64,000 nucleotides of DNA, taken from the NCBI GenBank assembly GCA_000004985.1, contig GG738850.1. The stretch is one strand, 5' to 3'. Source of the DNA: Naegleria gruberi. Taxonomy: Eukaryota. The notes below the pieces were generated by a model that did no database searches, had not been told where the DNA came from, and was given only the letters and a program-made list of their open reading frames with translations. Shown piece by piece: positions 15,941-41,255 of the stretch. The position numbers and the translations under genes are program-made. Numbering within the stretch: the first letter of the stretch is position 1; each line of letters starts with the position of its first letter.

Positions 15941-18900
15941 CTGGTCTTTAGAATGGGCTGTCGTCATTATTATTCCAATATTCATGAAGCTGGTTCACTT
16001 AATTTTAACACTTGACTTTCCGAGTTTGTATTTATTAACAATTATTGCATACGATTGGAATGGACAGCTCACTTTATTAGGGCTTGTGCTTGCCTTACAT
16101 GAAAGGTGTGTTATTGTAAAGCAAGTGGACTTTCCATTATCCAATCGTTTAGTTTGATGATTCGTCTACAATTAGTCAATACGGTTCACCTTTCTTCCAG
16201 TTTATGATACCGCAACACGATCTATTTGGTGTGGTGACTACAAACAATACAAGATCTAGTGAAGAATACTGCACAATGTTGGTGCATAAATTGAGTGAAT
16301 GGAAGAGACACTTTATTTCTCACTTTGAAAAAAACAAACAATATGTATTACAACAAACATTGTAGTACAAGAGTAATTCTTTCATTAATTAGCACAATTT
16401 TATTGTGTGTATTGATTGAAAGTATTATTGTAGAAGGTCAATGTCCTCATCAACAAGTTGGTTTGGTCAATTTTAACACATTAACTGGTTGGAATGTTGC
16501 CAATTATGATATTGTTATTACAAAAGCTGTCAAGTTAAATATTTCTCCTCCAAACAAATTACGTTCAATCACTGTTAAATCAGGTGGTTCTTTAATTTTT
16601 GATAATATTGATCTCAATTTGAATTTGAATTTCATTAGAGTTGAATCAAATGGTAGTTTTATAATGGGTAGTTCAAATTGTCCAATCACTTCAAAGGTTA
16701 TCTTGACATTGTATGGTGATCGTGTCAATAGTTCTATCAATGATCTTGGTAGTGATCCATTCGATGGAAGTAAATTGGGTTCAAAAGGTGTTGCTTTCTT
16801 GAGTGGATCTATTGTTCAAATTTATGGTAAAGTTGATGGACCAAGTTGGAGTGAAATTATCAAGAATTCCACCAAGGGAAGTTCACAACTTGAATTGAAA
16901 GAAGCTGTTCAATGGAGAGTTGGTGATTCAATTGTTGTTGCTTCAACAGATTATGGTGAATTATATGATTATAGAGTTGAAAAGAATGCTTCATTGGGTT
17001 GGATTCGTGGTGAACCATTTCCAAATCAAAATGAAGAGAGAAAGATTATTCAATTATTGAATGGAAACAAGACCATTATTTTAGATAGAGCATTGAATTA
17101 TACTCACTTTGCAAGTGTTGATGGAAAGATTCGTGCAGAAGTTGGTTTATTGACAAGAAGAATTGTTTTCAGAGGTGATGATTCATCTGAAAGTTCACTT
17201 TTTGGTGGTCACTTTATTATTCGTTTGGTTGATAAATTTAATATGGAAGGTGTTGAAATTACAAGATTTGGTCAACAAGGTTTAATGGGAAGATATAGGT
17301 ATGTTTGGTGTTGGTAATCATTTTTATTTAACTTGTATTTAATATTGTTTTTAATGATTTATTTAACTATTACTTATTATTCATTAATAGTTTCCATTTC
17401 CACTTGTTACAAAACAAACCATTTGGATTGAATTTCACAGTTAAGGATAATACAGTTCATCACAGTTTCCAAAGATGTTATGTTGTTCACGATACTAATT
17501 ATATTTTATTGAAGAATAATGTTTGTTATCGTGCATTTGGTCATATGTACTTCTTGGAAGATGGATCTGAAGTAGGAAATGAATTTAACAATAATTTGGG
17601 AGTTGATCCAATTCCAATCTCAAGAGAAAATCCTCGTCAAATCATTTTATCTGATTCTGATGTTTCAGTTTTTTGGATTACTAATCCAAACAATACATTC
17701 ATTGGAAATCATGCAGTTGGTGGTCGTTTCCCATTTTGGTTTACAATGCCAACATTCCCAACTGGATTGAGTGCAAATAGATACGCAGCTGGCTCTATTA
17801 ATCCAAGAACTGCTCCTCCAAAACCATTCGAAAACAATGTTGGTCACAGTTCATCAGGAAATGCTCTTCACATTGATGATATGGAAAAAGCTGATGGAAG
17901 TACAGAACTTGCTGGTTATTTTCCTTCAGGTGTTGTTGAAGCACTTTACAATGGATTTATTGCTTATAAGAATAGAGGATATGGTGTTTGGGCACGTGGT
18001 GGTTTACTTCGTTTCAAAAATTTATTCTTAACTGATAATAGAATTGCCATGAATTCTCCACCAGGACCAAGTATCATTCATGACAGTACTTTTATTGGTG
18101 AATCTGAAAATGTTGGTGAATTTTCATACAGACCAAAGATTGATCTTGGAAATAGAACAAGACCAGGTCAATATGTTAGTTCCAATTTGGATTTGATTAA
18201 GGGTTATGAAACTTATGATAATGGTGGTCCACAATACTTGAGAAATATCACTTTTATCAACTTTGTTACTGATTCATTCAAATATGCAGGTTCCTTATCT
18301 TCATTGAATAATTACTTTAAACATCAATCCAAAAACAGATATGCCAATTTAAAGTTTGTTAATGCAAACAGATATATGGTTTTCCCTTGGAATTATCCAA
18401 CTTATTATGATAATCACAAGGCAACTGCTTTGATGGATGTGGACGGCTCAACCACAAGTATTTCATCAATTGGTGGTTGGATCACTGGTAATGACACAAC
18501 CATGACATTCACACAATGTCAAGCAAGAACTGAATGGAATGCCTATCAATGTCCATTCTTTGGTGAATCTTTTGCTCAATTCAGAGTTGTTAACTGGAAT
18601 TTAACAAGTGTTAACACAACTGGAAGTGATGGTATTAGTAGACCTGATATTATTAACACTGGCAAGAGAGTTCCAAGAATGATTCTTGTTGATTTATTGA
18701 GAAATCGTGAATCCAATGTTATTGGTGCATTAATTGGTGCTACTCAAGAATATTTCATGCAAAGTAACCTGATTGCAAGAGGTTTCTATGGGCTTCGTTG
18801 GCCATACGACATTCCAACACCAAAAGATTTGAGTTTCTTCCTTGATTCATGTGCATCAAATGATTGGATTGTTGTTTCTGTTCAATATCCAAAAGGAACA

Positions 18901-20283
18901 ATTTTCAACATTAGATTCTACATGAGTCCAACAACAATTAACATGACCAGAACTGCAAACTTTACAACCATGTTGAGTGAGCCGACCAAATATTATTATT
19001 ATGATGATGCCACTGAACATTTGTACTTGAAGATCCAAAATAATGCACCAAGATCCTGGTATAGAGTTGTTGATAGCTTTGTTGATTACTATTCAACTGG
19101 TGTTGTTTATTTGAATGCCACATGTCCGAGAGGTATTTGTGCACCATCAAAATTCTCCAATCCAAGCAATGCAGGAACAACATATAAGACATTAATGAGA
19201 GAAGATAGATTTGTTGGAAGATTGGAAACATGTCAACAAGCAAGTGTGAAATCATTGGCTGCCAATTCCACAAGTGGAAGTGGTTATGTTTTTGCATTCT
19301 TGAATTCCAAAACAGCTTCTCTTGATTTTACTGTTCAACACAATTTGAACGATATTGTTACATCAATTGATATTGGATTTGGACTTGCAGGAAAGGAAGA
19401 ATACATTTCCACACCAACCTCAAAGATTATTCCCTATACTCAAAGCAGATTTGGTTACACCTTGTCATATGAAGAGTGGAATTATTTACTCCAAGGTAAA
19501 ATGTTTGTGAAATTATCAACTACTCAAAATGCAAATGGACATTTGAGAGCTCAACTCTATATTAACAACGCTACATCAACAAGTTGTAATTTACCACCTT
19601 TGGTTTCAAATGTTAAACCGTGTGATGCTTTGAATTTGAAGAATTCTTCCCATGTTATTTCAATTTATAGTGAAGGTCCAAAATTGACAAATGAATGGTA
19701 CATGTATGCCTATGTTCCAGCTGATATTAGAAATACATTTGTTAATGCTAGTTATGCACCAGCTATTTGTGGAAACTCATCAATGCATTTTGGTTTCAGA
19801 AAGGGAAATATTTCATTCAACAAGATTGGTTCCAATAAGATTTATGTAGATACCAGTATTTATCAATACTTTGAATTCTTTATCAAGACTGTCAATAATA
19901 CTGGAAGTGTTCCAAGTTTGACAATTGTATTTGGTTATTTGAATGATACAAAGGTTGTTGACTTTTCTAGAATCAACACACAAGCTAATCACACTCAATA
20001 TTTAAAGATTGATGGAAATACAGTGACTCGTGTGAGAATTCCACTTTCTGAACTTGGTTTTGCACCAATTCAAAACATTCACAGAATTATCTTGTACTTG
20101 CCAGATCAAACTAATTTCATTGAATTCTTGATGGATAATATGAGATTTGTTGGAGCACCAGCAACAGCTGAAAGCACAGCAAGAACCATGACTGTTTCTC
20201 AATGTAAATACTTTGGTGGTGTTTCATCATGTGGAAGTTTGGTAAATCCAGATCCAGATCCATTAGGTATTAGAAAATTGTAA
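15941..20283. repeat. Inverted-repeat arm A (about 4.34 kb). Includes the promoter region and the whole G8-protein gene, and ends exactly at its stop codon.
   Basis: Reverse complement of 36910-41255 aligns along the full length. Coding part is about 97% identical; the 5' flank (15941-16340) is about 85-90%. Similarity stops at 'ctggtcttta' (15941) on the outside and immediately after the TAA (20283) on the inside. Confidence 0.9.
16343..20283 (+). CDS. Secreted G8-domain / parallel-beta-helix-like protein (CEMIP/TMEM2/PKHD1-like), copy 1. Two exons: join(16343..17313, 17391..20283).
   Basis: ATG at 16343 with signal peptide 'MYYNKHCSTRVILSLISTILLCVLIES'. G8-like glycine-spaced beta pattern 'SITVKSGGSLIFDNIDLNLNLNFIRVESNGSFIMG..ILTLYG'. 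77-nt intron GTAATC...AATAG joins in-frame to 'CFHFHLLQNKPFG...'. About 1,290 aa. AATAAA lies 6 nt after the stop. Confidence 0.7.
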
Positions 20284-20342
20284 TCCAAATAAACATTATT
20301 TCATCTCTTATTACAAATTATTTCGAAAAAATATTAAAAAAA

Positions 20343-22100
20343 ATGGGAAATCAAAAGAGTAAGGGAACTTCTCATCCCTCCATTCATACAAAAGACATCA
20401 AGACTGATACAAAATTGAGTTCTTTTCGGTTTTTCCCACTCAAGAGTTCCTATACTTGTGGTAATTCAATGGCAAGGTTGTTACCTCCTCGGGATGTAAT
20501 TTGCAAGTTAGCCTTTGATTTTTTGGAAATTTATGATATTAATCAATTGGCCCAGAGTTGTAAATTAATTTATTATTGGTTGGTTTGTGATGATGCGAAA
20601 AAGGGTGATGGCGGATTTTGGAAGAGGATTGCTAGACGAGATGGATTTTCTGAATTTAGGGAAGAATTATCAGGTGATGAATGTAGGAAAATGTATTGGA
20701 AATTGATGGAGAGTAGATTGATATTTGAGAAGGACTTGAATTGTTTGGAATCACAAACATACTCAATTCGTAATCTTCATTCGGAAAGTTATGAAAAGTT
20801 TAAGGAATTTGTGGCTACTATTAACCATGATTTTGGTCAATTGTTGTATATTTTAAGGAATACTAGGAGGAATGTATTGACTAGAGCATATATTGCAGTT
20901 TTTGGGCTTGTAGATCATTCAGATAGTTCATACAATGAAAAACTGGAGAAAATGGCAAGATTAGCCATGTTGGTTGAAGATGGAGCTATCTTTCAAACAA
21001 ATTTACAATATTTCGGTTTGGTAAAGAGTAATATTGTAGCTTGTTTGTTTAGCAATATCTATCTACGGTCAAATACTGAGCTCGAAAATCATTTTGTGAT
21101 TACTACTGCATTTAGGACCAATTATCCTTTGGAATCGAGTGCAATGTTTGTGGAGAGTGCAATTATTTTGTTAGAAAAAAGATTTAAAGAAACCCAAAGT
21201 GATACAGACCAGTTTTATAGATTATTTTGTACAGTTTTGGGGAATCCTGAAAAGAGAAAGATCATACGGAGGATTAATGAAATGAAAATATTCGTTCAAT
21301 TGTTTTTACAATACAAAGGAGGAGATGAGATGGTTGATATTATTTTAACGTTGTTACTGTGTGAAGACAAATGCGGACGCGAGTCAATCAGCTCAATTAC
21401 ATTTTCAGTTTTACAAGAATCAATATTTGTACATCCTTTACTATTAGAAGGATTAATGAAAGAGGAATTCTATTCGAATAATTCATGCCATCCTAATTAT
21501 TTAACTGTTGTTGGGAAATATATTTCCACTCCCGATTTGAATATTGATTGTGGATTAAGAGAAAGAGCTTTAAACCTTATGGTAAATATGTGTAATATTA
21601 AGAATAATAAGGATGTAAGAGATCCTTTCCTGTATTTCATTCCTTGGGCTGAGATCAGAAAGAATCAAGCCTTTCCAATTTTGGAATTCAAAGAAAATGC
21701 CCTCTCTGAATTGAATGATTGTATATTTGATTGTATTAAGAAAGATTTAATTGTTTACTACCTTGGTATTGTTATAGAACTAGCTGAACATGATTTGAAG
21801 AAAACTGTGGATAGTATGCTGGATATTAGAAACTTACCTTCTATTTCTCATACTTTTATTCGGATTTGGTCGGAATTATTTAGAATATTTGAAAGATATT
21901 CCAAAGTCGTTGAACCAAATGAAACAGAATTATTCTTTTCTCGATTGGTTGAACTCCTTCATTGCTGCTGCCAAGAATCAATGTATCAACAAAATATAAC
22001 CTTGTTGGAAATGATAGAAAAGCAATTGAAATGGATAAATCCTAAATATTCCAATACAGAACATGTAGAAAAGGTGTTGATATCCATTAGAACAAAGTGA
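20343..22100 (+). CDS. N-myristoylation-motif (MGNQKS) F-box-like protein, hypothetical.
   Basis: 585 aa. Start in an A-run. 'DVICKLAFDFLEIYDINQLAQSCKLIYYWL' is F-box-like. Remainder is helical/unknown. Confidence 0.55.
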   Translation: MGNQKSKGTSHPSIHTKDIKTDTKLSSFRFFPLKSSYTCGNSMARLLPPRDVICKLAFDFLEIYDINQLAQSCKLIYYWLVCDDAKKGDGGFWKRIARRDGFSEFREELSGDECRKMYWKLMESRLIFEKDLNCLESQTYSIRNLHSESYEKFKEFVATINHDFGQLLYILRNTRRNVLTRAYIAVFGLVDHSDSSYNEKLEKMARLAMLVEDGAIFQTNLQYFGLVKSNIVACLFSNIYLRSNTELENHFVITTAFRTNYPLESSAMFVESAIILLEKRFKETQSDTDQFYRLFCTVLGNPEKRKIIRRINEMKIFVQLFLQYKGGDEMVDIILTLLLCEDKCGRESISSITFSVLQESIFVHPLLLEGLMKEEFYSNNSCHPNYLTVVGKYISTPDLNIDCGLRERALNLMVNMCNIKNNKDVRDPFLYFIPWAEIRKNQAFPILEFKENALSELNDCIFDCIKKDLIVYYLGIVIELAEHDLKKTVDSMLDIRNLPSISHTFIRIWSELFRIFERYSKVVEPNETELFFSRLVELLHCCCQESMYQQNITLLEMIEKQLKWINPKYSNTEHVEKVLISIRTK

Positions 22101-22147
22101 GCTTTCAAATGGTAGTATTTTGTAAAGTGTTAAACAATCAAAAAAAA

Positions 22148-24112
22148 ATGGATGAACATGATAGGAAGGCATTCCTTCCTTTTTGCTTTCCTACATTTAA
22201 AACGCTTCCCTGTAAATCATCAGATGGCGATCAAAATTCCGATGATGAAGAAAAATCTATGGAAAATAATTCAACGGTGATGAGAGAAAGATTTGATTTG
22301 AATGTTCTTTTACATAAAATTGATCCGGACTTGAATATATCAGTGGATGGAGCTAGAGAATTAGGACATTGCTTAATGATGCAAATGTGGTATTTAGTAT
22401 TGAAATGTCCGGAATTATTTCAACCAAAGAAGGAATTTGAAAAGGACGCCAGCTTGTTGGAGGACTATGTTGTTAAGAGACAACACGAGTATTCGAATCA
22501 AATATTTTATGATTTGTTGTTTTATGATGATTCTGTGAAAATGTCCAAGATGAAAGGAGGCGAATCAAAACAGAAAAAACAAAAGACCCAAAAGAAGGGA
22601 AATCAACAAACATTGAAATCATATTTGAGTGATTTGTTACGCTGTTGTTTGACAAGTGAATTGGCGAAAGGTGCTCTGGAAACTTTTGAACAATCTCTTT
22701 CGCTAGACCATAATATTTCTCCTTCTATCAGTCCAGAAGATTTGAAGGAATTAATATTGCAAATATTTACCTTCAATAATCCACCAAACATGAAGCAATG
22801 TAACATTGAGGATGTGCTTTTGTGCTTTGCATCAGTAATGGAATATTTGGCATTAGAAGTGTTGGAAGGATCTTGCTCTCTTACAAATCAAGCTGGATTA
22901 CAATTCATTTGGTATCCAGCCTTACAACAATCCATATATATAGATGAGGATTTGGCTTCTACATTATTTAATCATATTGGACTTATTCCTAGGGTCGATT
23001 TAAGATATTTTTACGGAGCTAATACTCGAAATGAAACTGTAAATTGGACTGGCATCTCAAATGATATTGTGTTTGAGATTTTATCTAAATTTGACAGCAT
23101 GAATGACTTGATGCAGATGAGATTGATCTGCAAGAGTTGGAATTATACAATTTTGACAAACATGCTCATTTGGAAGAATCTCTCAAGGAACGTAATGGTT
23201 AGAGAGGCTTTGTTTTCAGTGTGTGATACTAGTTTTTCTGCAGAAGAATTGGAAGAAACTCTAGGCAGAGCACAAGGTGAATTACCCAAATCAGCTCTTT
23301 CAAAGTTCCTCCTCCAAAAGAAAGATTGGTCAGGCATTTATTTCGGCAATGTCCACAATCATTTACAATTTGTAAAGGATTCTGAAAAATTACTTGAACT
23401 TGGATTTGAATGGCTTCCAGATCCAGGAGACCAATCATTGTCATATAGCGAGTTGAAAGAGGTTTTCCAAGAGTATATTGCAAAGGTTAGGTTCGGAGCT
23501 AGGAGTGATCCCCTAACTCAGCAACCTGAGGAGCCCAATTTTGAAAAAATCATGGTACCAAAATCTCACTTTGACGAATTCAACAAAATTGGAAGAAACT
23601 ACACATATCTTGGAATGATGGATTTTTCACAACTTTCATCCTTAGTTTCGTGTAGAAACTTCCCAAAATCTGGTTTATTGTATTGCTTTTATGATTTTAC
23701 AACTGAGATTGGATTTACACCTTTCTGTGAAGAAACAAACTTGATACAATTTACAATCAGCGATACTACCTTCCAAGTAGCAAAACCATCAGCTACTTCT
23801 TCGTCTTTCATGGATTCAGTGATGGTCAATTCCATTCCTTCTCATCCACTCTTATGGATGCAGTCACCATTCCTCAATAATTCAAGGAGTCATGTTTTCC
23901 CAAGTTTTGCTTTCGTTAAGAGTACTCGAATGGAAACCCTACCTGCAGATATTTGCCTGCTTTCTGATTCATTTTATTTGAATAGTGAAGACGAGGATGA
24001 GGAGGCTACTTGGACATTCGCAGTGTACATTTCACAAAATGATTTAAGAAACAGAAATTTCTCAAAAACAACTACCTTAACAGTGCCACACTACCAACAA
24101 TTTTTGAGGTAA
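22148..24112 (+). CDS. F-box protein whose N-terminal half is a fused H2B-like plus H2A-like histone-fold doublet.
   Basis: ATG at 22148 (aaaaaaaATGgatgaa), in frame with track ORF 22097..24112. H2B-like: 'VLLHKIDPDLNISVDGARELGHCLMMQMWYLV' against H2B '[30 protein letters not shown]', and 'LLRCCLTSELAKGALE' against 'LLLPGELAKHAVSE'. H2A-like: 'ASVMEYLALEVLEGSCSLTNQAGLQFIWYPALQQSIYIDEDLASTLF..GLIPRV' against H2A '[52 protein letters not shown]'. F-box-like 'ISNDIVFEILSKFDSMNDLMQMRLICKSWNYTIL' follows. Confidence 0.6.
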   Translation: MDEHDRKAFLPFCFPTFKTLPCKSSDGDQNSDDEEKSMENNSTVMRERFDLNVLLHKIDPDLNISVDGARELGHCLMMQMWYLVLKCPELFQPKKEFEKDASLLEDYVVKRQHEYSNQIFYDLLFYDDSVKMSKMKGGESKQKKQKTQKKGNQQTLKSYLSDLLRCCLTSELAKGALETFEQSLSLDHNISPSISPEDLKELILQIFTFNNPPNMKQCNIEDVLLCFASVMEYLALEVLEGSCSLTNQAGLQFIWYPALQQSIYIDEDLASTLFNHIGLIPRVDLRYFYGANTRNETVNWTGISNDIVFEILSKFDSMNDLMQMRLICKSWNYTILTNMLIWKNLSRNVMVREALFSVCDTSFSAEELEETLGRAQGELPKSALSKFLLQKKDWSGIYFGNVHNHLQFVKDSEKLLELGFEWLPDPGDQSLSYSELKEVFQEYIAKVRFGARSDPLTQQPEEPNFEKIMVPKSHFDEFNKIGRNYTYLGMMDFSQLSSLVSCRNFPKSGLLYCFYDFTTEIGFTPFCEETNLIQFTISDTTFQVAKPSATSSSFMDSVMVNSIPSHPLLWMQSPFLNNSRSHVFPSFAFVKSTRMETLPADICLLSDSFYLNSEDEDEEATWTFAVYISQNDLRNRNFSKTTTLTVPHYQQFLR

Positions 24113-24262
24113 TAATCAACTACAGTTTTGCTTGTTAAAAAAACAAAATAAATCCATTCATGGCAACCATCGTTGGTCTCTTTATTGTCATTTTGATTGT
24201 AAATAAAGGAATTAGAAGCCACTTGTAAAACTTGTGTACAACAAAGGAACTAGTTCTAGATA

Positions 24263-24765
24263 ATGGTGAGGTACTATGCTCACGTGATGAACCATGCACC
24301 AATGGACAAACTTGCTTATATATCTATGGTAAAGCTGGTGTTTGTGGTACTCCTAAAAAGGATGGAGAAACATGCTCCCACAAAGCATACTGTCTTCCTA
24401 ACAGGAAGTGATTCAGACACCAAATGCATGTCGATTGGTAAGATGGGAGAGTATTGTGACTCTCAAGCTGATTGTGTTGGAGGTTTGGAAATTCCATCTG
24501 GCTATTGTGAGAGTGGAATCTGCAAGGATTTTTCCACTCTGACAGGATGCTCTTCATGTACAAATGTTCATGTGGAGGCGATAAATGTGTTGATACATGT
24601 TTAGGACCACAAGCTGATGCTGAAATGTGTTTGTACAACATGGGAGCTGCCTATTTGGTGGGAGCTGACTATAGTTTCTCACTCATTCCAGGAATTTCTA
24701 CTTATCAGTGGTATGATGAAAAGTCTTCCCTATTCAAAATTGCAAACCTATTTCCAACATCATAA
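24263..24765 (+). other. Cysteine-rich mini-domain triplet split over three reading frames. Either a decayed gene or a small gene with unresolved tiny introns.
   Basis: Three similar modules: 'CTNGQTCLYIYGKAGVCGTPKKDGETCSHKAYC' (frame +2), 'CMSIGKMGEYCDSQADCVGGLEIPSGYCESGICKDF' (frame 0), and 'CSCGGDKCVDTCLGPQADAEMCLYNMGAAY' (third frame). Each frame ends in a stop after about 40-100 aa. Confidence 0.3.
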
Positions 24766-30515: not shown

Positions 30516-32456
30516 ATGCCAACTTGTGTAACTTTTGTTTGTGTGTGTGGTAGTAAGTTAAATTCAAGACAAGCAAAATATAGGCATTTGAAGAAATGTT
30601 CTTATTTTGATAGAGCAAGACAATTTATTCGAATTACCATTCCCCAAACAACTCTATGTAAAATAATTGATCCACAAGTTTCGAATAATATTGCCACATT
30701 CGATTCTGATAAACCTGATCCACATGAAGCAGCATATATGAAGATGGGAAGAGCTGTTGTTGGTGTTATTAAAGACCTCCCAATTACCTCGCCTATCAGG
30801 AAGCCATTGATAGCCAAAATTTGCAAAACGGTTAGACCAAAGGATGCCAGAGAAATCTTGAATTTGGATGAATCAACAATCAGGAAAGCCAAGAAGAACA
30901 ATGATAATTCTATCCTCATGATGAAATGTAAGCCTAATTGTACAAGAGAGAAAATTACCAAGAAAGAAATTGATCAGATTCAAAGATTCTGGCTTGATTC
31001 GTGTCGTGTTTCATCTACAGAAGTTCTACAAACAACAAGAAAGAGAGGTGAAACACCTGCCATTACTGTTCCAAAATATTGGCAAGATCAACCTACATGT
31101 TGGATCTATAAACAATATGTTGATTATTGTGAGGAGAGAGTGTTGGTACAATTTTCAGTTGGTACGTTTGTCAAGTATAAGCCAAAGAATATTAGACCAT
31201 CCAAAAAGTTGGAAGGAGTATGTCCAATTTGTAAAGATTTCAATCAGAATGGCGAGAAGTACCAACAAGCTTCTGAATTATTACATCATGTAAGAATTAA
31301 TCCAGACTGTGAGTGTGAGAAGTGTCAACATTTTGCTAATTGCTCCAAGACAGAATTATTAGCACTTCAAAAGAAATATGATAAATACTTACTGCATGAT
31401 AAGCTGGTCAAAGATAAGGATCAATATTGGAAAAAGGTAAAGGCCGAACTAAAAGAAGATGAACTCATCGTTGTGATGGATTTTGCCAGTGGTTGGGAGG
31501 TTGTTGATAAAGCCGTAGAGACTACCAATGAATTCTTTGAAAAGTTTTACATCAAGGATATGATTGTAGTGGTAATCAGAAAATTGGGAGATGAATTCGA
31601 ATATTATTACATTGATATTCTAAATGACAATCATAATTCAGATCATCATTATGTAAGAGAATCATGGGAGTATTTGTTATCTAATGAGGAGATATTTGCT
31701 GGTAAATCAAAACTATTCCTGTTTTCAGATGGTGGCCCTGCTCATTACAAGACCTGTAAAACGGTTGTTATGGTTGGCGAAATGTCTCGTAAATTTGGTA
31801 TTCCTATTGAGTATAACTTCTTCCCATCACATCATGGAAAAGGACCTTGTGATGCACACACTGGAGTAGGTAAGAAGTTTATCAAAAACAAAGTACAAAG
31901 TAGACAAATTGAAGTGCAAACTCTTGATGATATTCAACAATTATTACAACAGCTCAAGAATACAAAAGTCATTCATCTGGAGGACATTGAAACATTTGAT
32001 GATTATAACGTGCAAAAGGTTGCTAATGTTAGATCATTCCATCAATATACTTACGAATTTGATTCTGAAGGTGAAATGGATCTGCTTTGCAAGATATCTT
32101 ATGAAGATGAGCATATAGAAGTCAAATCAGCAATATTGTTATCAAATTGTGGTGTGCAACTACAAGCAAATCATTGTCTATTCTGTAGAGAGGAGGGGCA
32201 TAATCACAGAGTGTGTGATTTGATGGCAGAAGAATATTTAAAAGAAGATTTTGATCCTTCTTATTACGATTTCCTCTCGCGAGAGAATGATTATCTTCCA
32301 GATAGAGAGGAGGACGAAGATGAAGAGGAATATTCATCCAGTGATGATGGTGAAGATGATACAGACAACGTTAGTGAAATTAGTATTGAAGTTGAACCTA
32401 CCAGAGAAAAAAGAAACAACCGTGGCAACAGATGTGCCTCATTTTCTATTAAATAA
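30516..32456 (+). CDS. Zinc-finger protein with a putative RNase-H-like (DDE/DDD) core and an acidic C-terminal tail. Candidate transposase or domesticated transposase.
   Basis: 646 aa. Zinc-finger-like motifs: N-terminal 'CVCGSKLNSRQAKYRHLKKC', central 'CPICKDF..HHVRINPDCECEKCQHF' (CxCxxCxH, SWIM-like), C-terminal 'CLFCREEGHNHRVC'. Candidate catalytic acidic residues sit in 'VVMDFASGWE', 'LFLFSDGGPAHYK' and 'FFPSHHGKGPCDAHTG'. The gene begins 9 bp after the tRNA-like relic and ends 146 bp before tRNA-Leu. Confidence 0.5.
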   Translation: MPTCVTFVCVCGSKLNSRQAKYRHLKKCSYFDRARQFIRITIPQTTLCKIIDPQVSNNIATFDSDKPDPHEAAYMKMGRAVVGVIKDLPITSPIRKPLIAKICKTVRPKDAREILNLDESTIRKAKKNNDNSILMMKCKPNCTREKITKKEIDQIQRFWLDSCRVSSTEVLQTTRKRGETPAITVPKYWQDQPTCWIYKQYVDYCEERVLVQFSVGTFVKYKPKNIRPSKKLEGVCPICKDFNQNGEKYQQASELLHHVRINPDCECEKCQHFANCSKTELLALQKKYDKYLLHDKLVKDKDQYWKKVKAELKEDELIVVMDFASGWEVVDKAVETTNEFFEKFYIKDMIVVVIRKLGDEFEYYYIDILNDNHNSDHHYVRESWEYLLSNEEIFAGKSKLFLFSDGGPAHYKTCKTVVMVGEMSRKFGIPIEYNFFPSHHGKGPCDAHTGVGKKFIKNKVQSRQIEVQTLDDIQQLLQQLKNTKVIHLEDIETFDDYNVQKVANVRSFHQYTYEFDSEGEMDLLCKISYEDEHIEVKSAILLSNCGVQLQANHCLFCREEGHNHRVCDLMAEEYLKEDFDPSYYDFLSRENDYLPDREEDEDEEEYSSSDDGEDDTDNVSEISIEVEPTREKRNNRGNRCASFSIK

Positions 32457-32602
32457 ACAATAAAACAGGATTGTTTATTTTTACTTTCTCGAAGTAATAT
32501 GATTTTGATTCATTTAATCTTACATTTAGCACTATGATTTATAGTGTTAATGCTGATGCAGAACCTGTTCAAAATTGTAATTTAAATAATTTGAATGTGA
32601 AG

Positions 32603-32682
32603 TAGGGGTTCCCGAGTGGTCAAAGGGGGTAGACTCAAGTTCTACTGCGCAAGCTTCGTGGGTTCAAATCCCACCTTCTGCA
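32603..32682 (+). tRNA. tRNA-Leu (anticodon CAA), class II with long variable arm.
   Basis: 'GTAGGGG tt CCC GAGTGGTCAAAG GGG GTAGA CTCAAGT TCTAC tgcgcaagcttc GTGGG TTCAAAT CCCAC CTTCTGC a'. Closely parallels eukaryotic tRNA-Leu(CAA) ('GCCGAGTGGTCTAAGG...GACTCAAGTTCTGG...GTGGGTTCGAATCCCAC'). Acceptor stem has three G-U pairs. Confidence 0.8.
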
Positions 32683-33275
32683 AATTTTGTTTTTGTTTTT
32701 TCTGATTGTCCAGTTTTAAATATTTTAATATTTTCTATTACCCATTGAAGTCTACTACAAGATAAAATTTGAATGGTAGTGTGATAATATATCTTCATGG
32801 AGAAAATAGCCTCAGACTGATTTGTTCCAATTGTCCCTCATTTTTATCCAAAAATATTTAACAAAACAAGTAATCTTTGAATTACTCTCCAATCACTGAT
32901 TTTCACAAAGTGATATTTCTACATTCTATCTACCATGCACCAATCTATCACCACACAAATTTTCTTTTTATCACCAACTTGCACAACAACATTATCCATT
33001 TTTCATTCACATCAAGTTTTAGGATAGGTGCTCAAAACGCACATTCCAAAACAACGCTCCTGCTTAGAACGTTAGAGGTTTTCTTCCTTTCCCACAGTTT
33101 TCTGAACGACCCAAGTTGAAGCGACAGAACAACGGAGCTGCCACCTTTCAAAAAAAAATAACAAACATGTCACTCTCTGTAACATCACCTAAAGGTTTGT
33201 GTTCTTCTTTTATTCAAATCCTCATCATTAAAAATACAAATCTCTCCCTTCAAAATAGTCATCATTATTTTATTA

Positions 33276-34446
33276 ATGATGATAATTAGCTGTTCATGTA
33301 ATTTGATTATTGACAGGAATCCGATAATCACTCCTGGAATGCCAAAAGTTTTGGCAGATAGATTACGATATCTAGAATCCATTAAAAAAGCCAAAGGTAT
33401 TAAAATTGCTAATGGATCAAAAGCAGCAACTAACGAATTTCCATTTATGGTATCTCTTCAGTATCAAGCAAGTAGTTCGAGCGTTCCTTATCATTTCTGT
33501 GGTGGATCAATTATTAATAAGCGATATATCATGACAGCAGGTAAGTTTTGATATGACTTTTGACATTTTTAACATTGTGAACTAGCTCACTGCATGTTCG
33601 ATGACACTAATGTAAAATTGACACCTTCTACCATTGTGGTTCTTGCAGGAGTCAACTATAACACCATTTCTACATCAAGTTTATCTGGAAATTACGCAAA
33701 AGGCAGCTCAATTACAGTTCATACAAGTTTCAGCTCGAAAACACTTGCAAATGACATTGCAATTATTTATTTAGATAGAGATTTGACAATTGATGGAACA
33801 ACTACACGTCTGGCTTACATTGAATCAGGTTCAGTTCCAATCCCAACTGCATCCTCAAAGATTCTCGTAGCTGGTTGGGGTTACACTGACTCAACTGAGG
33901 TTGCTTCTGAAAATTTGTTAAAAGTTAATATTCCAATTGTTTCTGATACGATCTGTAATTCATATCCATTGAGTTTGGATATGGCTAAACCAAGACAAAT
34001 ATGTGCTGGTGATGGTGCTGGTCACGATTCTTGTAAGTTGTTGATTTTTACAAAATTTAATTGTAAAATATTTTGAATTTATTACAATTATTGGAAATTG
34101 TTGGAAAATAGGTAGTGGTGATTCAGGAGGTCCATTGTTTAGAGTAGTCAATTCAAACACCAAGGACTTTGCAGTTGTTGGATTGGTAAGCTACGGACCT
34201 GATGGTTGTGGAACTGGATACGAAACTAACAGAGGTGTCTATACGAATACTACCTATTATTTGAATTCGTTTATTAGAAGTGTTGTTTCATCGGTTCAAA
34301 CTGATACCTACAATTCAAATTCAAGCTATGTCTATACCGGAACAAGTGGTGGTTCAACCAAATCTGATGCAAGTTTAGGATTTGATTTGAAGAGTTTCGT
34401 ATTTATTGTTGTAATGTGTTTGGGAATGATCTTTTATGCCTTGTAA
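33276..34446 (+). CDS. Trypsin-like (S1/chymotrypsin-family) serine protease with C-terminal hydrophobic anchor (GPI/TM). Three exons: join(33276..33540, 33586..34032, 34112..34446). The 5' start is uncertain.
   Basis: Mature N-terminus 'IANGSKAATNEFPFMVSL'. Catalytic His in 'TAAHC' (split by the 45-nt intron 33541-33585). Asp in 'DIAIIYL'. Ser in 'GDSGGP' (after the 79-nt intron 34033-34111). Both introns are GTAAGT...AG and phase-consistent. C-terminus 'FVFIVVMCLGMIFYAL'. An additional upstream exon is possible (acceptor 'ttgacag' at about 33320). Confidence 0.8.
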
Positions 34447-34515
34447 TATAATATCAATACAAATTTTTAGAATTTTATTGATTCCTATTCCAATTTGAAA
34501 TCTTTATGGAAATAT

Positions 34516-35703
34516 TCAAAGTTCATCATGTGAATGCTTGTTGGAATAATCAGTTGATGGAGCATGAAAATGATTACCATTTTGGAATTGAGATAATTTA
34601 GTGGCACCTATGAGAATTGGATCGTCAATGGAGTGTAAAATATTCTTACCGAATTGATGTTCGATAATTGAAGAAATTGTTGGAAAGGAACATGTCGAAT
34701 TGAAAAGGATAATGTGATCTATTTGAGAGGGAGGATAGGATTCCATAATCTTGTGGAGATCTTGTTTGAAAATATCGAGTAATGGAGAGGAAACTTCAAT
34801 ATATTCTTCCAAGGTAATTTCCTTGAGTAATTTGCTATTCGAAAGGTCAGTTTCATGATCAAATATTTGGACTGGTTGTTTCTTAGCTAGTTTACATCTC
34901 AATTGCTTTGGATCTATTTTCAAATCAATTCCTCCAGGCCAATATCTTTCGAATAAGGAATCGAATTCATTCCATCCTATTCTTGGATCTGACTTTTCGA
35001 GTAATTTCTTTAATTTTTCATTAGAAAAATCCCAAACACCAACTTGCAACTCATAACTATTCCAATTCATTATCAAAATCTTTGAATTCTCCTCAGGAAT
35101 CAAATCATATCCTTTTATAGCTAAACTTTCCTCATCCACCAAATCAACTTGTAAATCCTTTGGCGCCAAATCCAATATTTTCCTTCTTTGTTGCTTGGAA
35201 AGTTGACTTGGAATAGAAATTATCATTCTCTCAACAGTTTCCTTCAGAAATTCTTCTGAACTTTCTTTCAACTTTTCGAATACTAAAATGGAAAATGCTT
35301 CAATCGGATCCAACAACTCAGTCGAACCATTATTAAACTTTAACTCCACAATTGGATTACCAGAATGATCTTGGATAATTTTACTTGGATAATCATCTAT
35401 AAAATCTGTTGGTAATTCATCAAATTTGTGCTCTAAAAGAAATCTGATTTGGTCAACTCTGTTTGAGTGTTGAAGATTTGCTTGTTCTCCAAACATAATT
35501 TCTCCATTTTCCATAATTGCAATAGAAGTATCCACTCTGTCATGTCCATTTGTGGTAATTCTGAAAAACATATCATGCTTGATGGTTGCAATGGAAATAA
35601 ATTCGTGAGTGAAATGAATTCCAACGCTCGCTTGATGAGAATGCAAAACAAGGGAAAGGATGAAAAATAGAAATATTAGCACCGCTGGTTGAATGGTTTT
35701 CAT
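34516..35703 (-). CDS. Secreted, divergent Hsp70 nucleotide-binding-domain-like protein (actin-like ATPase fold, likely catalytically degenerate, no substrate-binding domain).
   Basis: 395 aa. Signal peptide 'MKTIQPAVLIFLFFILSLVLHS'. 'SVGIHFTHEFISIA..RVDTSIAIMENGEIMFGEQA..IRFLLEHKFDE..LDPIEAFSILVFEKLKESSEEF' parallels Hsp70 '[65 protein letters not shown]'. The phosphate-1 loop DLGTT is replaced by HFTHE. Confidence 0.5.
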   Translation of the reverse strand: MKTIQPAVLIFLFFILSLVLHSHQASVGIHFTHEFISIATIKHDMFFRITTNGHDRVDTSIAIMENGEIMFGEQANLQHSNRVDQIRFLLEHKFDELPTDFIDDYPSKIIQDHSGNPIVELKFNNGSTELLDPIEAFSILVFEKLKESSEEFLKETVERMIISIPSQLSKQQRRKILDLAPKDLQVDLVDEESLAIKGYDLIPEENSKILIMNWNSYELQVGVWDFSNEKLKKLLEKSDPRIGWNEFDSLFERYWPGGIDLKIDPKQLRCKLAKKQPVQIFDHETDLSNSKLLKEITLEEYIEVSSPLLDIFKQDLHKIMESYPPSQIDHIILFNSTCSFPTISSIIEHQFGKNILHSIDDPILIGATKLSQFQNGNHFHAPSTDYSNKHSHDEL

Positions 35704-35919
35704 TTTTTTTTTAAATATTATTTAGAATTTGTTGGAAGACTTTTTTGGAAACTTGCCAAAAATAGTGGATTATTTAAGTTTCGGTAGTTTCGTCCAAGAT
35801 TAAGGTTAGATGGAGAAAGTGAAGATATTTAAGCCAACAATTTAAGGCGAAACGTGATCAAGTCATAACTTTTTTTATTGACATCTCGTGTCAACTTGTT
35901 CATCACGTTTCTAAAAAAA

Positions 35920-36891
35920 ATGGCAGAAAATACACTGGTTTTATGTGAAGAAGACTATTCTTTAACTAAACAACAATTTGCTGAAAATGAATTCGAAGAA
36001 ACAAATTTAAATTGTGAACAGAAACTAGACGAAAGTGATGATGATCAGTATATGGCTCATTCACCCAATACTAAACCAACAACAGAAACAAAATTGGAAG
36101 ATATCGCTGTAGGTGATGTTGAAAATTCCAACCATTTTCGTGTGAAAGCACGATCATTATCAATAACATCAATAGTTGCAGTGATAATAATCATGGGATT
36201 GGTATTTATTCGAATCGAGAATGAAAAAAACACTACTCATGTCAACAACTTGTTGGAAGAAGCCAGAAACGAAATTTCCAAATTAAAACACGATATGAAG
36301 ATGACACTGGAGGAAAAGAACAACCTTAAAGAACAATTTTACAAAGTGGCTCTCCAGGTTTTACATTTAGAACAGAAAGAACAAGAATCGTCCGTAAAGC
36401 TTTCGTCTATTCAAAAGCAAAACGAGAAAATCATTTCAACCTTGGAAGAACAACCCAAATCAGACTTGATAAATGGTTCAGATTTGAAGAGACAGCTTTC
36501 TGCGTTCCAAGAATCAATTATCAAATTCGAAAAGATAATCGAAGAAAAGAATGAGGAAATTCAAAACTTGAACTTTGAAATCTCTAAAAATTCAATTGCT
36601 ATTGAAAAATTGACTGATAGTAATATAGGTTTAAAGAAGGAAATTGTAAATCTGCCCCAACTCTCGCTGAAGAAGGAAGAATTAATTGAAGAAAATCAAG
36701 TCAAAGAAATGCATTATGAAAGCCTAAACGAACCGAATGCAGTTGATGATTTATCAAATAATGTTGAAGAAGAACATTTATTGTCACCACTACTGGTCAT
36801 ATTCTTTAGGGTTATTGAAATACTTGTTTTTACTTTTTTTGTCTTGATAGTTGGGTGCATATGTATTTTTGTTATGAGTATTAAAAAATAA
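35920..36891 (+). CDS. Coiled-coil, tail-anchored membrane protein, hypothetical.
   Basis: ATG at 35920 after an A-run. Long heptad-like K/E-rich region. C-terminal TM 'LLVIFFRVIEILVFTFFVLIVGCICIFVMSI'. Internal hydrophobic segment 'ITSIVAVIIIMGLVFI'. Confidence 0.5.
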   Translation: MAENTLVLCEEDYSLTKQQFAENEFEETNLNCEQKLDESDDDQYMAHSPNTKPTTETKLEDIAVGDVENSNHFRVKARSLSITSIVAVIIIMGLVFIRIENEKNTTHVNNLLEEARNEISKLKHDMKMTLEEKNNLKEQFYKVALQVLHLEQKEQESSVKLSSIQKQNEKIISTLEEQPKSDLINGSDLKRQLSAFQESIIKFEKIIEEKNEEIQNLNFEISKNSIAIEKLTDSNIGLKKEIVNLPQLSLKKEELIEENQVKEMHYESLNEPNAVDDLSNNVEEEHLLSPLLVIFFRVIEILVFTFFVLIVGCICIFVMSIKK

Positions 36892-36909
36892 GGCTTTATT
36901 TGAGGGAAG

Positions 36910-39900
36910 TTACAACTTTCTAATACCTAATGGATCTGGATCTGGATTTACCAAACTTCCGCACGATGAAACACCACCAAAGTATTTACATTGAGAAACA
37001 GTCATGGTTCTTACTCTGGTTTCAGCTGTTGCTGGTGCTCCAACAAATCTCATATTATCCATCAAGAATTCAATGAAATTAGTTTGATCTGGCAAGTACA
37101 AGATAATTCTGTGAATGTTTTGAATTGGTGCAAAACCAAGTTCAGAAAGTGGAATTCTCACACGAGTCACTGTATTTCCATCAATCTTTAAATATTGAGT
37201 GTGATTAGCTTGTGTAGTGATCTTGGAAAAGTCAACAACCTTTGTAACATTCAAATAACCAAATACAATTGTCAAACTTGGAACACTTCCAGTATTATTG
37301 ACAGTCTTGATAAAGAATTCAAAATATTGATAAATACTGGTATCTACATAAATCTTATTGGAACCAATCTTGTTGAATGAAATATTTCCCTTTCTGAAAC
37401 CAAAATGCATTGATGAGTTTCCACAAATAGCTGGTGCATAACTAGCATTAACAAATGTATTTCTAATATCAGCTGGAACATAGGCATACATGGACCATTC
37501 ATTGGTCAATTTTGGACCTTCACTATAAATTGAAATAACATGGGAAGAATTCTTCAAATTTAAAGCATCACACGGTTTAACATTTGAAACCAAAGGTGGT
37601 AAATTACAACTTGTTGATGTAGCATTGTTAATATAGAGTTGAGCTCTCAAATGTCCATTTGGATTTTGAGTAGTTGATAATTTCACAAACATTTTACCTT
37701 GGAGTAAATAATTCCATTCATCATATGATAAGGCATATCCAAATCTGCTTTGAGTATATGGAATAATCTTTGAGGTTGGTGTGGCAATATAATCTTCCTT
37801 TCCTGCAAGTCCAAATCCAATATCAATTGATGTGACAATAGCATTCAAATTGTGTTGAACAGTAAAATCAAGAGAAGCTGTTTTGGAATTCAAGAATGCA
37901 AAAACGTAACCACCTCCACTTGTTGAATTGGCAGCCAATGATTTCACACTTGCTTGTTGGCATGTTTCCAATCTTCCAACAAATCTATCTTCTCTCATTA
38001 ATGTCTTATATGTTGTTCCTGCATTGCTTGGATTGGAGAATTTTGATGGTGCACAAATACCTCTTGGACATGTGGCATTCAAATAAACAACACCATATGA
38101 GTAGTAATCAACAAAGCTATCAACAACTCTGTATGATGTTCTAGAAGCTTGATTTTGGATCTTCAAGTACAAATGTTCAGTAGCATCATCATAATAGTAG
38201 TAATTCTTAGGTTCACTCAACATGGTTGTAAAGTTTGCAGTTCTGGTCATGTTAATTGTTGTTGGATTCATGAAGAATCTAATGTTGAAAATTGTTCCTT
38301 TTGGATATTGAACAGCAACAACAATCCAATCATTTGCAGCGCTTGCATCAAGGAAGAAACTCAAATCTTTTGGTGTTGGAATGTCGTATGGCCAACGAAG
38401 CCCATAGAAACCTCTTGCTACCAAATTACTTTGCATATAAAAGTCACCACTGGAGCTTAATGCACCAATAACATTGGATTGGCGATTTCTCAATAAATCA
38501 ACAAGAATCATTCTTGGAACTCTCTTTCCTGAATTGATAATATCAGGTCTACTAATACCATCACTTCCAGTTGTGTTAACACTTGTTAAATTCCAATTCA
38601 AAACACGGAATTGAGCAAAAGATTCACCAAAGAATGGACATTGATAGGCATTCCATTCAGTTCTTGCTTGACATTGTGTGAATGTCATGGTTGTGTCATT
38701 ACCAGTAATCCAACCACCAATTGATGAAATACTTGTGATTGAGCCGTCTACATCCATCAAAGCAGTGGCCTTGTGATTCTCATAATAAGTTGGATGATTC
38801 CAAGGGAAAACCATATATCTGTTTGCATTAACAAACTTTAAATTGGCATATCTATTTCTGGATTGATGTTTAAAGTAATTATTCAATGAAGATAAGGAAC
38901 CTGCATATTTGAATGAATCAGTAACAAAGTTAATAAAAGTGATATTTCTCAAATATTGTGGACCACCATTATCATAAGTTTCATAACCCTTAATCAAATC
39001 CAAATTGGAACTAATATATTGACCTGGTCTTGTTCTATTTCCAAGATCAATCTTTGGTCTGTATGAAAATTCACCAACATTTTCAGATTCACCAATAAAA
39101 GTACTATCATGAATGATACTTGGTCCTGGTGGAGAATTCATGGCAATTCTATTATCAGTTAAGAATAAATTTTTGAAACGAAGTAAACCACCACGTGCCC
39201 AAACACCATATCCTCTATTCTTATAAGCAATAAATCCATTGTAAAGTGCTTCAACAACACCTGAAGGATAATAACCAGCAAGTTCTGTACTTCCATCAGC
39301 TTTTTCCATATCATCAATGTGAAGAGCATTTCCTGATGAACTGTGACCAACATTGTTTTCAAATGGTTTTGGAGGAGCAGTTCTTGGATTAATAGAGCCA
39401 GCTGCGTATCTGTTTGCACTCAATCCAGTTGGGAATGTTGGCATTGTAAACCAAAATGGGAAACGACCACCAACTGCATGATTTCCAATGAATGTATTAT
39501 TTGGATTAGTAATCCAAAAAACTGAAACATCAGAATCAGATAAAATGATTTGACGAGGATTTTCTCTTGAGATTGGAATTGGATCAACTCCCAAATTATT
39601 GTTAAATTCATTTCCTACTTCAGATCCATCTTCCAAGAAGTACATATGACCAAAAGCACGATAACAAACATTATTCTTCAATAAAATATAATTAGTATCG
39701 TGAACAACATAACATCTTTGGAAACTGTGATGAACTGTATTATCCTTAACTGTGAAATTCAATCCAAATGGTTTGTTTTGTAACAAGTGGAAATGGAAAC
39801 TATTAATGAATAATAAGTAATAGTTAAATAAATCATTAAAAACAATATTAAATACAAGTTAAATAAAAATGATTACCAACACCAAACATACCTATATCTT

Positions 39901-40847
39901 CCCATTAAACCTTGTTGACCAAATCTTGTAATTTCAACACCTTCCATATTAAATTTATCAACCAAACGAATAATAAAGTGACCACCAAAAAGTGAACTTT
40001 CAGATGAATCATCACCTCTGAAAACAATTCTTCTTGTTAATAAACCAACTTCTGCACGAATCTTTCCATCAACACTTGCAAAGTGAGTATAATTCAATGC
40101 TCTATCTAAAATAATGGTCTTGTTTCCATTCAATAATTGAATAATCTTTCTCTCTTCATTTTGATTTGGAAATCGTTCACCACGAATCCAACCCAATGAA
40201 GCATTCTTTTCAACTCTGTAATCATATAATTCACCATAATCTGTTGAAGCAATAACAATTGAATCACCAACTCTCCATTGAACAGCTTCTTTCAATTCAA
40301 GTTGTGAACTTCCTTTGGTGGAATTCTTGATAATTTCACTCCAACTTGGACCATCAACTTTACCATAAATTTGAACAATAGATCCACTCAAAAAAGCAAC
40401 ACCTTTAGAACCCAATTTACTTCCATCGAATGGATCACTACCAATGTCATTGATAGAACTATTGACACGATCACCATACAATGTCAAGATAACTTTTGAA
40501 GTGATTGGACAATTTGAACTACCCATAATAAAACTACCATTTGATTCAACTCTAATGAAATTCAAATTCAAATTGAGATCAATATTATCAAAAATTAAAG
40601 AACCACCTGATTTAACAGTGATTGAACGTAATTTGTTTGGAGGAGAAATATTTAACTTGACAGCTTTTGTAATAACAATATCATAATTGGCAACATTCCA
40701 ACCAGTTAATGTGTTAAAATTGACCAAACCAACTTGTTGATGAGGACATTGACCTTCCACAATAATACTTTCAATCAATACACACAATAAAATTGTGCTA
40801 ATTAATGAAAGAATTACTCTTGTACTACAATGTTTGTTGTAATACAT
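36910..40847 (-). CDS. Secreted G8-domain / beta-helix-like protein, copy 2: complement(join(36910..39799, 39877..40847)).
   Basis: Paralog of the 16343..20283 gene. Same signal peptide, same intron position and sequence. ATG at 40847..40845. Coordinates derived by symmetry with copy 1. Confidence 0.7.
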
Positions 40848-41255
40848 ATTGTTTGTTTTTTTCAAAGTGAGAAATAAAGTGTCTCTTCCATTCACTCAAT
40901 TTATGCACCTAACCATCTTGGTTGTGTATTATTCCTCAAATCACAACAGAACGTGTTGTTTGTGGTCCCTTCACCAAATACATGAAATTTGAAGATACTG
41001 AAAGGTGAACCATATTGTATAATTGAAGACGAATCATCAAACTAAACGATTGGATAATGGATGTGCACTTGCTTTACAACAACACATCTTTCATTTTAGG
41101 TGTACCCAAGCCCTAATAAAGTGAGCTGTCCATTCCAATTGTAAGCTGCAATAATTGTAAATAAAACTAAAGACGGAAAGTCAAGTGTTAAAATCAAGTC
41201 AACCAGCTTCATGAATATTGGAATAATAATGACGACAGCCCATTCTAAAGACCAG
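36910..41255. repeat. Inverted-repeat arm B (about 4.35 kb), the reverse-complement copy of 15941-20283.
   Basis: See arm A. The 77-nt intron is 100% identical between copies. Exons differ at about 2-3% of nucleotides, giving about 3% amino-acid substitutions (e.g. 'ALIGATQEYFMQ' versus 'ALSSSGDFYMQ'). Confidence 0.9.

Follow-up and report, generated by a model that had tools for sequence, protein, structure and literature searches.

Two genes that are almost identical in one part and strongly diverged in another, and that point towards each other from either end of 16.6 kb of unrelated genes, raise the question of how such a pair arose and what has kept its copies alike. The pair lies on contig GG738850.1 of Naegleria gruberi, and the window, by which we mean the whole stretch of DNA that was analysed, comprises 64,000 nucleotides (nt) of this contig, which is a nuclear scaffold of the eukaryote N. 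gruberi NEG-M. The element under study is an inverted repeat with two arms (A and B), each carrying a complete gene for a predicted secreted protein with a G8 domain and a CEMIP-type beta-helix, in the following called the G8 gene. We consider it quite likely that the arms stem from an old inverted gene duplication, which has been partly homogenised by interlocus gene conversion while both copies were under purifying selection.

The arms of the inverted repeat

It is clear from the alignments that the inverted repeat is genuine and far beyond chance. With blastn, positions 15936-20283 match 41260-36910 in one single alignment of 4367 columns with 95.5% identity, 160 mismatches and 23 gap openings, and a repeat search returned three collinear inverted pieces, 16281-18733/38457-40909 (2453 nt, 98%), 18748-20283/36910-38445 (1536 nt, 95%), and 15936-16049/41147-41260 (114 nt, 92%). 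The arms enclose a spacer of 16,626 bp (20284-36909), for which no further long repeat was found against the rest of the window. A first-pass annotation of the same DNA had placed the arms within 5 nt of these positions and had described two complete, convergent two-exon genes for secreted G8/beta-helix proteins with their upstream regions, on either side of a unique spacer of 16,626 bp, and this description is borne out. The parts of the repeat are the following.

15936..20283, plus strand: arm A, 5' flank and G8 gene copy A (blastn and repeat search)
15936..16342, plus strand: 5' flank or promoter region upstream of copy A, with 71-93% identity to its counterpart in arm B, many indels and a frayed outer edge
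16343..17298, plus strand: exon 1 of copy A, signal-peptide-like N-terminus and G8 domain (Pfam, gene model)
17299..17390, plus strand: 92-nt intron of copy A (GTATGT..TAG), 100% identity with that of copy B
17391..20283, plus strand: exon 2 of copy A, CEMIP beta-helix, CEMIP_X and a weak CHRD match, ending in TAA (Pfam, gene model)
20284..36909, no strand: spacer, unique, about 11 unrelated genes (repeat search, open reading frames, Pfam)
36910..41260, minus strand: arm B, G8 gene copy B (EFC48803, NAEGRDRAFT_46431) and 5' flank (blastn, GenBank match)
36910-39799, minus strand: exon 2 of copy B, mirror of copy A
39800-39891, minus strand: intron of copy B, mirror of copy A
39892-40847, minus strand: exon 1 of copy B, mirror of copy A
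40848-41260, minus strand: 5' flank of copy B, mirror of copy A

Each arm thus consists of about 400 bp of upstream sequence and one complete gene, with the ATG of copy A at 16343. Splicing out the 92-nt intron gives the junction GRY-S-FHFH, and copy B translated in this way is exactly GenBank EFC48803 (1281 amino acids). The intron had previously been given as 77 nt long and identical between the copies; the identity is indeed 100%, but the length is 92 nt, since this is the splice that reproduces EFC48803. Both reading frames are intact, and the two proteins agree at 1236 of 1282 aligned codons, an identity of 96.4% that is close to the value of about 97% first proposed, and differ by an indel of one codon. 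The protein has a hydrophobic N-terminus and gives Pfam matches to G8 (3.5e-19), CEMIP_beta-hel (5.3e-40), CEMIP_X (3.2e-08) and, weakly, CHRD, so that the order G8, CEMIP beta-helix, domain X is present in the product of the duplicated gene. The best solved relative by sequence is the ectodomain of the cell-surface hyaluronidase TMEM2 (8c6i_A, 7.9e-46), and from these matches the product is predicted to be a secreted CEMIP/TMEM2-like G8 beta-helix protein.

In GenBank, copy A is buried in a larger gene model. EFC48664 / D2V3M7 (NAEGRDRAFT_46424, 2354 amino acids; 16343-24112) merges copy A with an open reading frame (ORF) of 585 amino acids and an F-box ORF, both from the spacer, and the fusion was made by splicing out the stop codon of copy A. 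We regard this model as an annotation artefact and the fusion as false, because copy B (EFC48803, 1281 amino acids) and an ORF from a metagenome (P0248, 654 amino acids) show the genes to be separate.

The edges of the arms are informative with respect to what was duplicated. The next gene begins 59 nt past the stop codon of copy A, and a convergent gene terminates 18 nt from the stop codon of copy B. The outer edge is frayed, with a weak collinear inverted similarity that extends about 40-60 nt outward (p = 0.06). The inner edge is sharp, yet it lies slightly beyond the stop codon; CAAATAAA followed by TTATTT is found within about 25 nt 3' of both stops, which is marginally above chance (p ~0.04) and looks, from the letters, like a common poly(A) signal. 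The homology had been taken to end exactly at the stop codons, and this marginal likeness corrects the picture by about 25 nt on each side. Deeper in the spacer the 3' flanks of the two copies show no relatedness (p = 0.15). Together, the compact neighbours and the edges suggest that the duplicated unit was one whole and very compact transcription unit.

Divergence along the arms

The two copies do not differ to the same extent everywhere. When the identity is counted per 100 columns, the 5' flank (15941-16313) shows 71-93% with many indels, and not the 85-90% that had been estimated for the flanks. The following 2 kb (16314-18313) show 98-100% except for one bin at 96% (16714-16813), the segment 18314-19111 shows 81-96%, and from 19111 to the stop codon the arms are a mosaic of 93-100% identity. 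Two of these segments are central to what follows, where dS denotes synonymous and dN nonsynonymous divergence per site.

16314..18313, plus strand: homogenised tract, 98-100% identical to 40876-38877, containing a perfect run of 382 nt (identity profile)
18314..19111, plus strand: least-converted block, 81-96% identity, overlapping codons 701-900 (about 18535-19134) with dS 0.24-0.28 (identity profile, dS)

For the whole gene dS is 0.090 and dN is 0.019 (Nei-Gojobori), and the resulting dN/dS of about 0.2 points to purifying selection on both copies. In windows of 100 codons dS ranges from 0.016 (codons 1-100, 301-400 and 501-600) up to the 0.24-0.28 of codons 701-900. The 128 differences in 3974 columns are distributed unevenly (chi-square 146, 19 degrees of freedom, p = 1e-21, in 200-nt bins), and the best change point, at about 18574, separates 1.3% divergence on the upstream side from 5.7% on the downstream side. 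The longest perfect run, at 17153-17534, covers the whole intron (permutation p = 2e-4), and about 2 kb of the arms are 99% identical. Near-perfect identity (>99.9%) does not extend over a whole arm; overall the arms are 95.5% identical, and 98-100% is reached in 16314-18313 only. Since the contrast is also present at silent sites and in the intron, constraint at the protein level is no explanation for it. The uneven dS, the identical intron and the far more diverged 5' flank all support the gene conversion that the first-pass annotation had suggested, and we infer that conversion is the process that homogenised the copies.

A second strain dates the duplication

A second strain of Naegleria, 98-99% identical to NEG-M, was reached through 90% protein clusters in the ENA/Logan metagenome ERR1078381 (PRJEB11402), where its contigs are at most 2.4 kb long. 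One of them (L003; contig k127_495404 of ENA ERZ929261) reaches from the 5' flank of the G8 gene through exon 1 and the intron into the first part of exon 2, and is of the B type. In the alignable part of the flank (about 104 sites) 26 sites, in addition to indels, are unique to copy A, 1 is unique to L003 and 0 are unique to copy B. The divergence between A and B in the flank is therefore about 25 times the divergence between the strains, which both carry the B-type flank. Within 16314-17925 the corresponding counts are 13 sites unique to A, 11 unique to L003 and 5 unique to B, and the difference between A and B in this 5' coding part is about as large as that between the strains. By these counts, the 5' coding parts of A and B have a common ancestor about as old as the split of the strains, whereas the separation of their flanks goes back about 25 times further.

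These counts bear directly on the idea that the duplication is recent and that no conversion took place, with young copies in which the flank and the block around codons 700-900 have evolved at a locally accelerated rate. This would agree with the 98-100% identity of most of the coding sequence, and the excess of derived residues of copy A in the divergent block (see below) also speaks for it. However, not only dN but also dS is raised in the divergent block, about 17-fold, and among about 104 sites of the B-type flank a single one differs between the strains, as opposed to the 26 sites plus indels that separate it from the A type. A flank that is nearly static between strains is not a fast-evolving one, and A and B must have split long before the strains did. 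Interlocus gene conversion predicts just such a combination of an old split in the flank and a young split in the 5' coding part, and this combination excludes both a recent duplication and a fast-evolving flank. We therefore regard a young, unconverted pair as very unlikely, and the recent segmental duplication of the first-pass annotation finds no support either, as A and B are separated by about 0.25 per site in the flank and in the least-converted block, some 25-fold the divergence of the strains.

The same metagenome bears on whether the repeat could be an artefact of the 2010 Sanger assembly, in which alleles or collapsed paralogs would have been misjoined in inverted orientation. The strain is reported in the literature to be heterozygous or of uncertain ploidy, ploidy and loss of heterozygosity vary within the genus (PMC9928731), and the roughly 2 kb of arm sequence at 99% identity can mislead assemblers. 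Against this, the window contains no N characters and no scaffold gap, and 160 substitutions and 23 indels separate the arms, which are bordered on either side by unique sequence, whereas alleles would share their flanks. The 4.5% divergence of the arms is also well above the 1-2% seen between strains. Finally, the independent metagenome assembly reproduces the B-specific 5' flank as well as the transition from the outer end of arm B to the neighbouring ferrochelatase gene (contig L004, 41160-43581, 98.4% identity). Further contigs cover 21830-24187 (L005/L006) and 34330-35928 (L007) of the spacer at 98-99% identity. Taken together, this makes a misassembly highly improbable.

Some further observations were made with these and other sequences. 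The intron of L003, aligned to 39800-39891, has a 35-nt deletion and is 57 nt long instead of 92 nt, while the introns of A and B in NEG-M are identical. A 337-amino-acid ORF adjoining arm B had no homolog beyond NEG-M in the protein collection, and scans of metagenome contigs of the Joint Genome Institute (JGI) for exact patterns from conserved arm sequences gave no match. In N. lovaniensis, neither the locus with the closest G8 homolog (L001) nor that with the ferrochelatase (L002) has a neighbour in common with the window, this species being too distant, and N. gruberi was omitted from the published synteny analysis (PMC9928731).

A probable history of duplication and conversion

The order of events that we favour would begin long before the strains split, when the G8 transcription unit, with about 400 bp of promoter at one end and approximately the poly(A) signal at the other, was duplicated in inverted orientation. 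This initial step may have occurred by template switching or through a tandem pair in which one member became inverted. Purifying selection would then have retained both copies, and repeated non-reciprocal homologous recombination between the arms would have made them alike again, mainly in the 5' two-thirds of the coding region, intron included. The expected outcome is a mosaic in which tracts of 98-100% identity lie beside blocks, and a promoter flank, in which the initial divergence of about 0.25 per site is preserved.

Several points weigh against this account of a converted old duplication. There is no signature of GC-biased conversion, the G+C content at third codon positions being 0.15-0.22 in the homogenised tract and 0.20-0.31 elsewhere. 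In the divergent block, 12 derived amino-acid changes fall on copy A and 4 on copy B, so that part of the divergence of this block may reflect relaxed or adaptive evolution of copy A in addition to age, and regional mutation rate or codon constraint could in principle contribute to the unevenness. Independent data confirm one of the four arm junctions, the outer one of arm B.

The third paralog, NAEGRDRAFT_66848, was considered as a possible source of the divergent block by ectopic conversion. This was rejected, as neither copy specifically matches the paralog; the sites at which A and B differ are divided between the copies, A being ancestral at 12 and B at 20.

Possible inversion of the spacer

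As a corollary of the duplication and conversion outlined above, the homology of the arms would also support reciprocal crossover and thereby inversion of the spacer. Flip-flop inversion, which had been brought up earlier, is plausible, and the identity of the arms (the perfect run of 382 nt, and 99% over about 2 kb) is enough for homologous recombination. Since the arms are whole genes, a crossover between them would recreate two intact, though chimeric, G8 genes, and the genes of the spacer would keep their own promoters, which implies a silent isomerism and no switch. Occasional inversion through arm homology would thus leave every gene intact.

A programmed switch, in which the arms flip the cassette in the style of phase variation and alter expression, has in its favour the geometry of an invertible segment and the long perfect runs within the arms. 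It is, however, hardly credible when the content of the locus is taken into account. No recombinase or invertase domain was found by Pfam in 21 larger ORFs of the spacer and flanks (at least 91 amino acids), the 4.5% divergence of the arms is unlike that of dedicated switch sites, and, as any crossover would rebuild two intact G8 genes and each spacer gene would keep its own promoter, no change of expression is to be expected.

Whether the arms still recombine actively in living populations of N. gruberi, with the segment occurring in both orientations and with crossovers or conversions that go on producing chimeric G8 alleles, is a separate matter, and we think this unlikely. If it were true, a mostly clonal free-living protist would gain structural polymorphism as well as variation in a secreted polysaccharide-degrading enzyme.

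Genes of the spacer and its neighbours

Along the window the G+C content is 29-40%, and that of the spacer is like that of its flanks, so that the region has no compositional break. The genes and ORFs of the spacer are listed here.

spacer: ORF of 585 amino acids, no Pfam domain match
22097-24112: F-box protein (Pfam F-box)
spacer: two metallophosphoesterase-like genes in divergent orientation (Pfam, one solid at 4e-10, one weak)
spacer: DUF4116 repeat protein (Pfam)
spacer: small membrane protein (ORF inspection)
30516-32456, plus strand: transposase-like ORF of 646 amino acids (see the putative transposon below)
32602..32682, plus strand: transfer RNA (tRNA) gene tRNA-Leu(CAA), the only bona fide tRNA of the spacer (tRNA calls)
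spacer: trypsin-like gene, spliced (Pfam)
spacer: Hsp70-like protein, truncated (Pfam)
spacer: coiled-coil membrane protein (ORF inspection)

These genes are unrelated and of ordinary Naegleria types, and we see no theme that would justify calling the set functionally coherent, as had been done. The metallophosphoesterases, the DUF4116 protein, the protease (trypsin-like) and the Hsp70-like protein of the earlier description all stand. Where two F-box proteins had been named, Pfam recognises one, at 22097-24112, and the 585-amino-acid ORF is without a match. The F-box protein had also been credited with a histone doublet. What we find, within 22148-24112, is a stretch of 45 amino acids with similarity to human H2A (BLASTP, E = 6e-4), which resembles the alpha2-alpha3 region (VMEYLALEVLE...ALQQSIYIDEDL); no H2B-like part was detected, Pfam and PDB sequence searches gave no match for a doublet, and the doublet is thus unconfirmed. 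The C-terminus of the same protein has a weak match to DUF1963.

Identical GenBank entries of N. gruberi NEG-M exist for five ORFs in the window, namely EFC48799 (phosphoesterase), EFC48802, EFC48666, EFC48669 (ferrochelatase) and EFC48670, and all of them belong to the same scaffold of 707,703 bp. An origin from a phage or virus was dropped, since megablast of one arm against a phage collection gave no match and the exact protein matches are those of a eukaryotic nuclear scaffold.

Outside the arms, a few features were noted in passing. An ORF of 550 amino acids (4031-5683) overlaps a tandem array in which a unit of 72 nt (24 codons) occurs 18 times, the copies being about 80-89% alike (4240-5763), and just downstream of this ORF lies a tRNA-Trp gene on the minus strand (5927-5997). 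The ORF at 6576-12746 (2056 amino acids) has bacterial-type Big_9 repeats (Pfam 5.6e-125) together with cadherin-like repeats (1.5e-89) and a C-terminal start of a VWA domain; judged by its domains, a set unusual for a eukaryote, it may be of bacterial origin. On the minus strand at 13755-15597, outside arm A, is a gene that appears F-box-like by eye (LSFEVLLQVLDYLF) and seemingly requires an intron or a frame change near 15290-15300; Pfam searches with its separate ORF pieces gave no match. Within 41832-44978, the ferrochelatase gene adjoining arm B has, beyond its Naegleria orthologs (48-50%), its best matches in Bacteroidota/Chlamydiota at about 40%, and the gene next to it has a PARG catalytic domain of microbial type.

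A putative transposon in the spacer

The transposase-like ORF of the spacer appears to belong to a small element of its own.

30345..32490, plus strand: putative DNA transposon of about 2.15 kb, with 29-nt terminal inverted repeats (TIRs) around the 646-amino-acid ORF

The TIRs (30345-30373 and 32462-32490) are 29 nt long and 86% complementary. The ORF (NAEGRDRAFT_78435) has an N-terminal helix-turn-helix, a CxxC zinc motif, a core with an RNase H fold and a C-terminal CCHC knuckle, and 1226 relatives were found among 50% cluster representatives (E <= 1e-3), although it belongs to no Pfam family. H294, D322, F323, D405, H440, G441 and D446 are invariant across the relatives. An AlphaFold model from the alignment of the relatives has a predicted local distance difference test (pLDDT) score above 85 for residues 70-540 and the RNase-H-like order beta-beta-beta-alpha-beta-alpha-beta-alpha, with D322 on strand 1 and D405 on strand 4, and the best PDB matches with Foldseek are the transposases of Mos1 (8e-4), Hermes and the P element. 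On these grounds, 30345-32490 is a putative DNA transposon of about 2.15 kb with an ORF that would have a DDD-type RNase H fold.

The ORF had been described as lying between tRNA sequences, which is correct for the tRNA-Leu at 32602-32682 but unconfirmed for a tRNA on the upstream side. At 30437-30505, just upstream of the ORF, there is a tRNA-like segment with acceptor halves GTAACG/CGTTAC and a T-loop-like GTATCGAAT; neither ARAGORN nor Rfam (even at E <= 1) called a tRNA here and the fold z-score is -1.8, so this segment has probably decayed from a tRNA or resembles one by chance. The complete tRNA-Leu is found beyond the candidate right TIR, at a distance of 112 bp. Dada DNA transposons target small RNA genes, and their transposases carry the motifs DSTKKV, VDRDCC and DxxH. 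For comparison we used the Dada-U6_DR core (Dataset S1 of PMC3706591) with BLASTP and phmmer. Membership of the 646-amino-acid ORF in the Dada superfamily was rejected, because there was zero similarity to Dada-U6_DR in either search and no tRNA is split.

The presence of a transposase-like ORF within the spacer, together with long terminal inverted repeats around a cassette, could suggest that the whole 25.3 kb is a giant transposon or composite with 4.35-kb TIRs, or that the spacer was delivered by one. However, the hallmarks of a transposon are absent from the inverted repeat. There is no target-site duplication or other direct repeat at its outer ends, where a degraded inverted homology runs on instead, and the supposed TIRs are a host-type gene with intron and promoter under purifying selection. 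Only two proteins in the proteome, NAEGRDRAFT_46424 and NAEGRDRAFT_46431, are more than 90% identical, and the next paralog is at 68%. The transposase-like ORF is framed by 29-nt TIRs of its own, which sit 10 kb and 4.4 kb from the ends of the arms, a distance at which we see no tie to the origin of the duplication, and the spacer has the G+C content of its flanks and contains spliced genes. A mobile origin of the arms or the spacer is thus so improbable that it can practically be disregarded, and the duplication and conversion of a host gene remains our explanation for the repeat.

Comparison with known systems

No paper was found on this locus or on inverted repeats in Naegleria nuclear genomes. 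The direct importance of the finding is small, but it offers a clean and well-delimited instance of concerted evolution of inverted paralogs in a heterolobosean, a group where recombination and sex are otherwise inferred mostly from gene inventories. The locus could be used as an assay, by polymerase chain reaction (PCR) or long reads, for mitotic or meiotic homologous recombination in Naegleria, with conversion and inversion as its readouts. By-products of the analysis are the false fusion EFC48664 / D2V3M7 and a candidate transposon protein of a large family without a Pfam model.

Among known structures, the palindromes of the human Y and X chromosomes (P1-P8 and the X palindromes) undergo gene conversion between their arms and, rarely, inversion of the spacer (PMC3723533, PMC8981503). 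They resemble the Naegleria locus in their inverted arms with intact genes, their unique spacer, their upkeep by non-reciprocal recombination and the possibility that crossover inverts the spacer, but their arms measure 9 kb to 1.45 Mb and are >99.9% identical, as compared to 4.35 kb and 95.5% here. Conversion in the Naegleria pair appears patchy and without GC bias, and inversion is here what the homology of the arms would permit.

In C. elegans, long inverted-repeat gene pairs consist of convergent or divergent paralogs that are actively maintained (Zhao et al. 2007, PMC1803023). These pairs share with the Naegleria locus, which is convergent, a kilobase-scale inverted repeat of homologous genes and paralogs that are more alike than their age predicts. 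They differ in that they usually include the full intergenic sequence of adjacent genes, whereas the Naegleria arms are 16.6 kb and about 11 genes apart.

At the human FLNA-EMD locus in Xq28, inverted repeats of 11.3 kb surround a 48-kb segment whose orientation is polymorphic. As in Naegleria, kilobase-scale inverted repeats flank a segment of tens of kilobases with unrelated genes, and inversion is expected to be phenotypically silent; in contrast, orientation polymorphism has been demonstrated there, and its arms are not known to be a functional gene pair under selection. The inverted repeat of plastid genomes, with its flip-flop isomers, is similar with respect to copy correction of the repeats and structural isomerism of a single-copy region, but it is organellar and multicopy with near-perfect identity and frequent recombination, while the Naegleria pair is a single nuclear locus. 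Seen against these systems, the locus is a further example of a known structure, an inverted-repeat paralog pair that has probably been partly homogenised by gene conversion.

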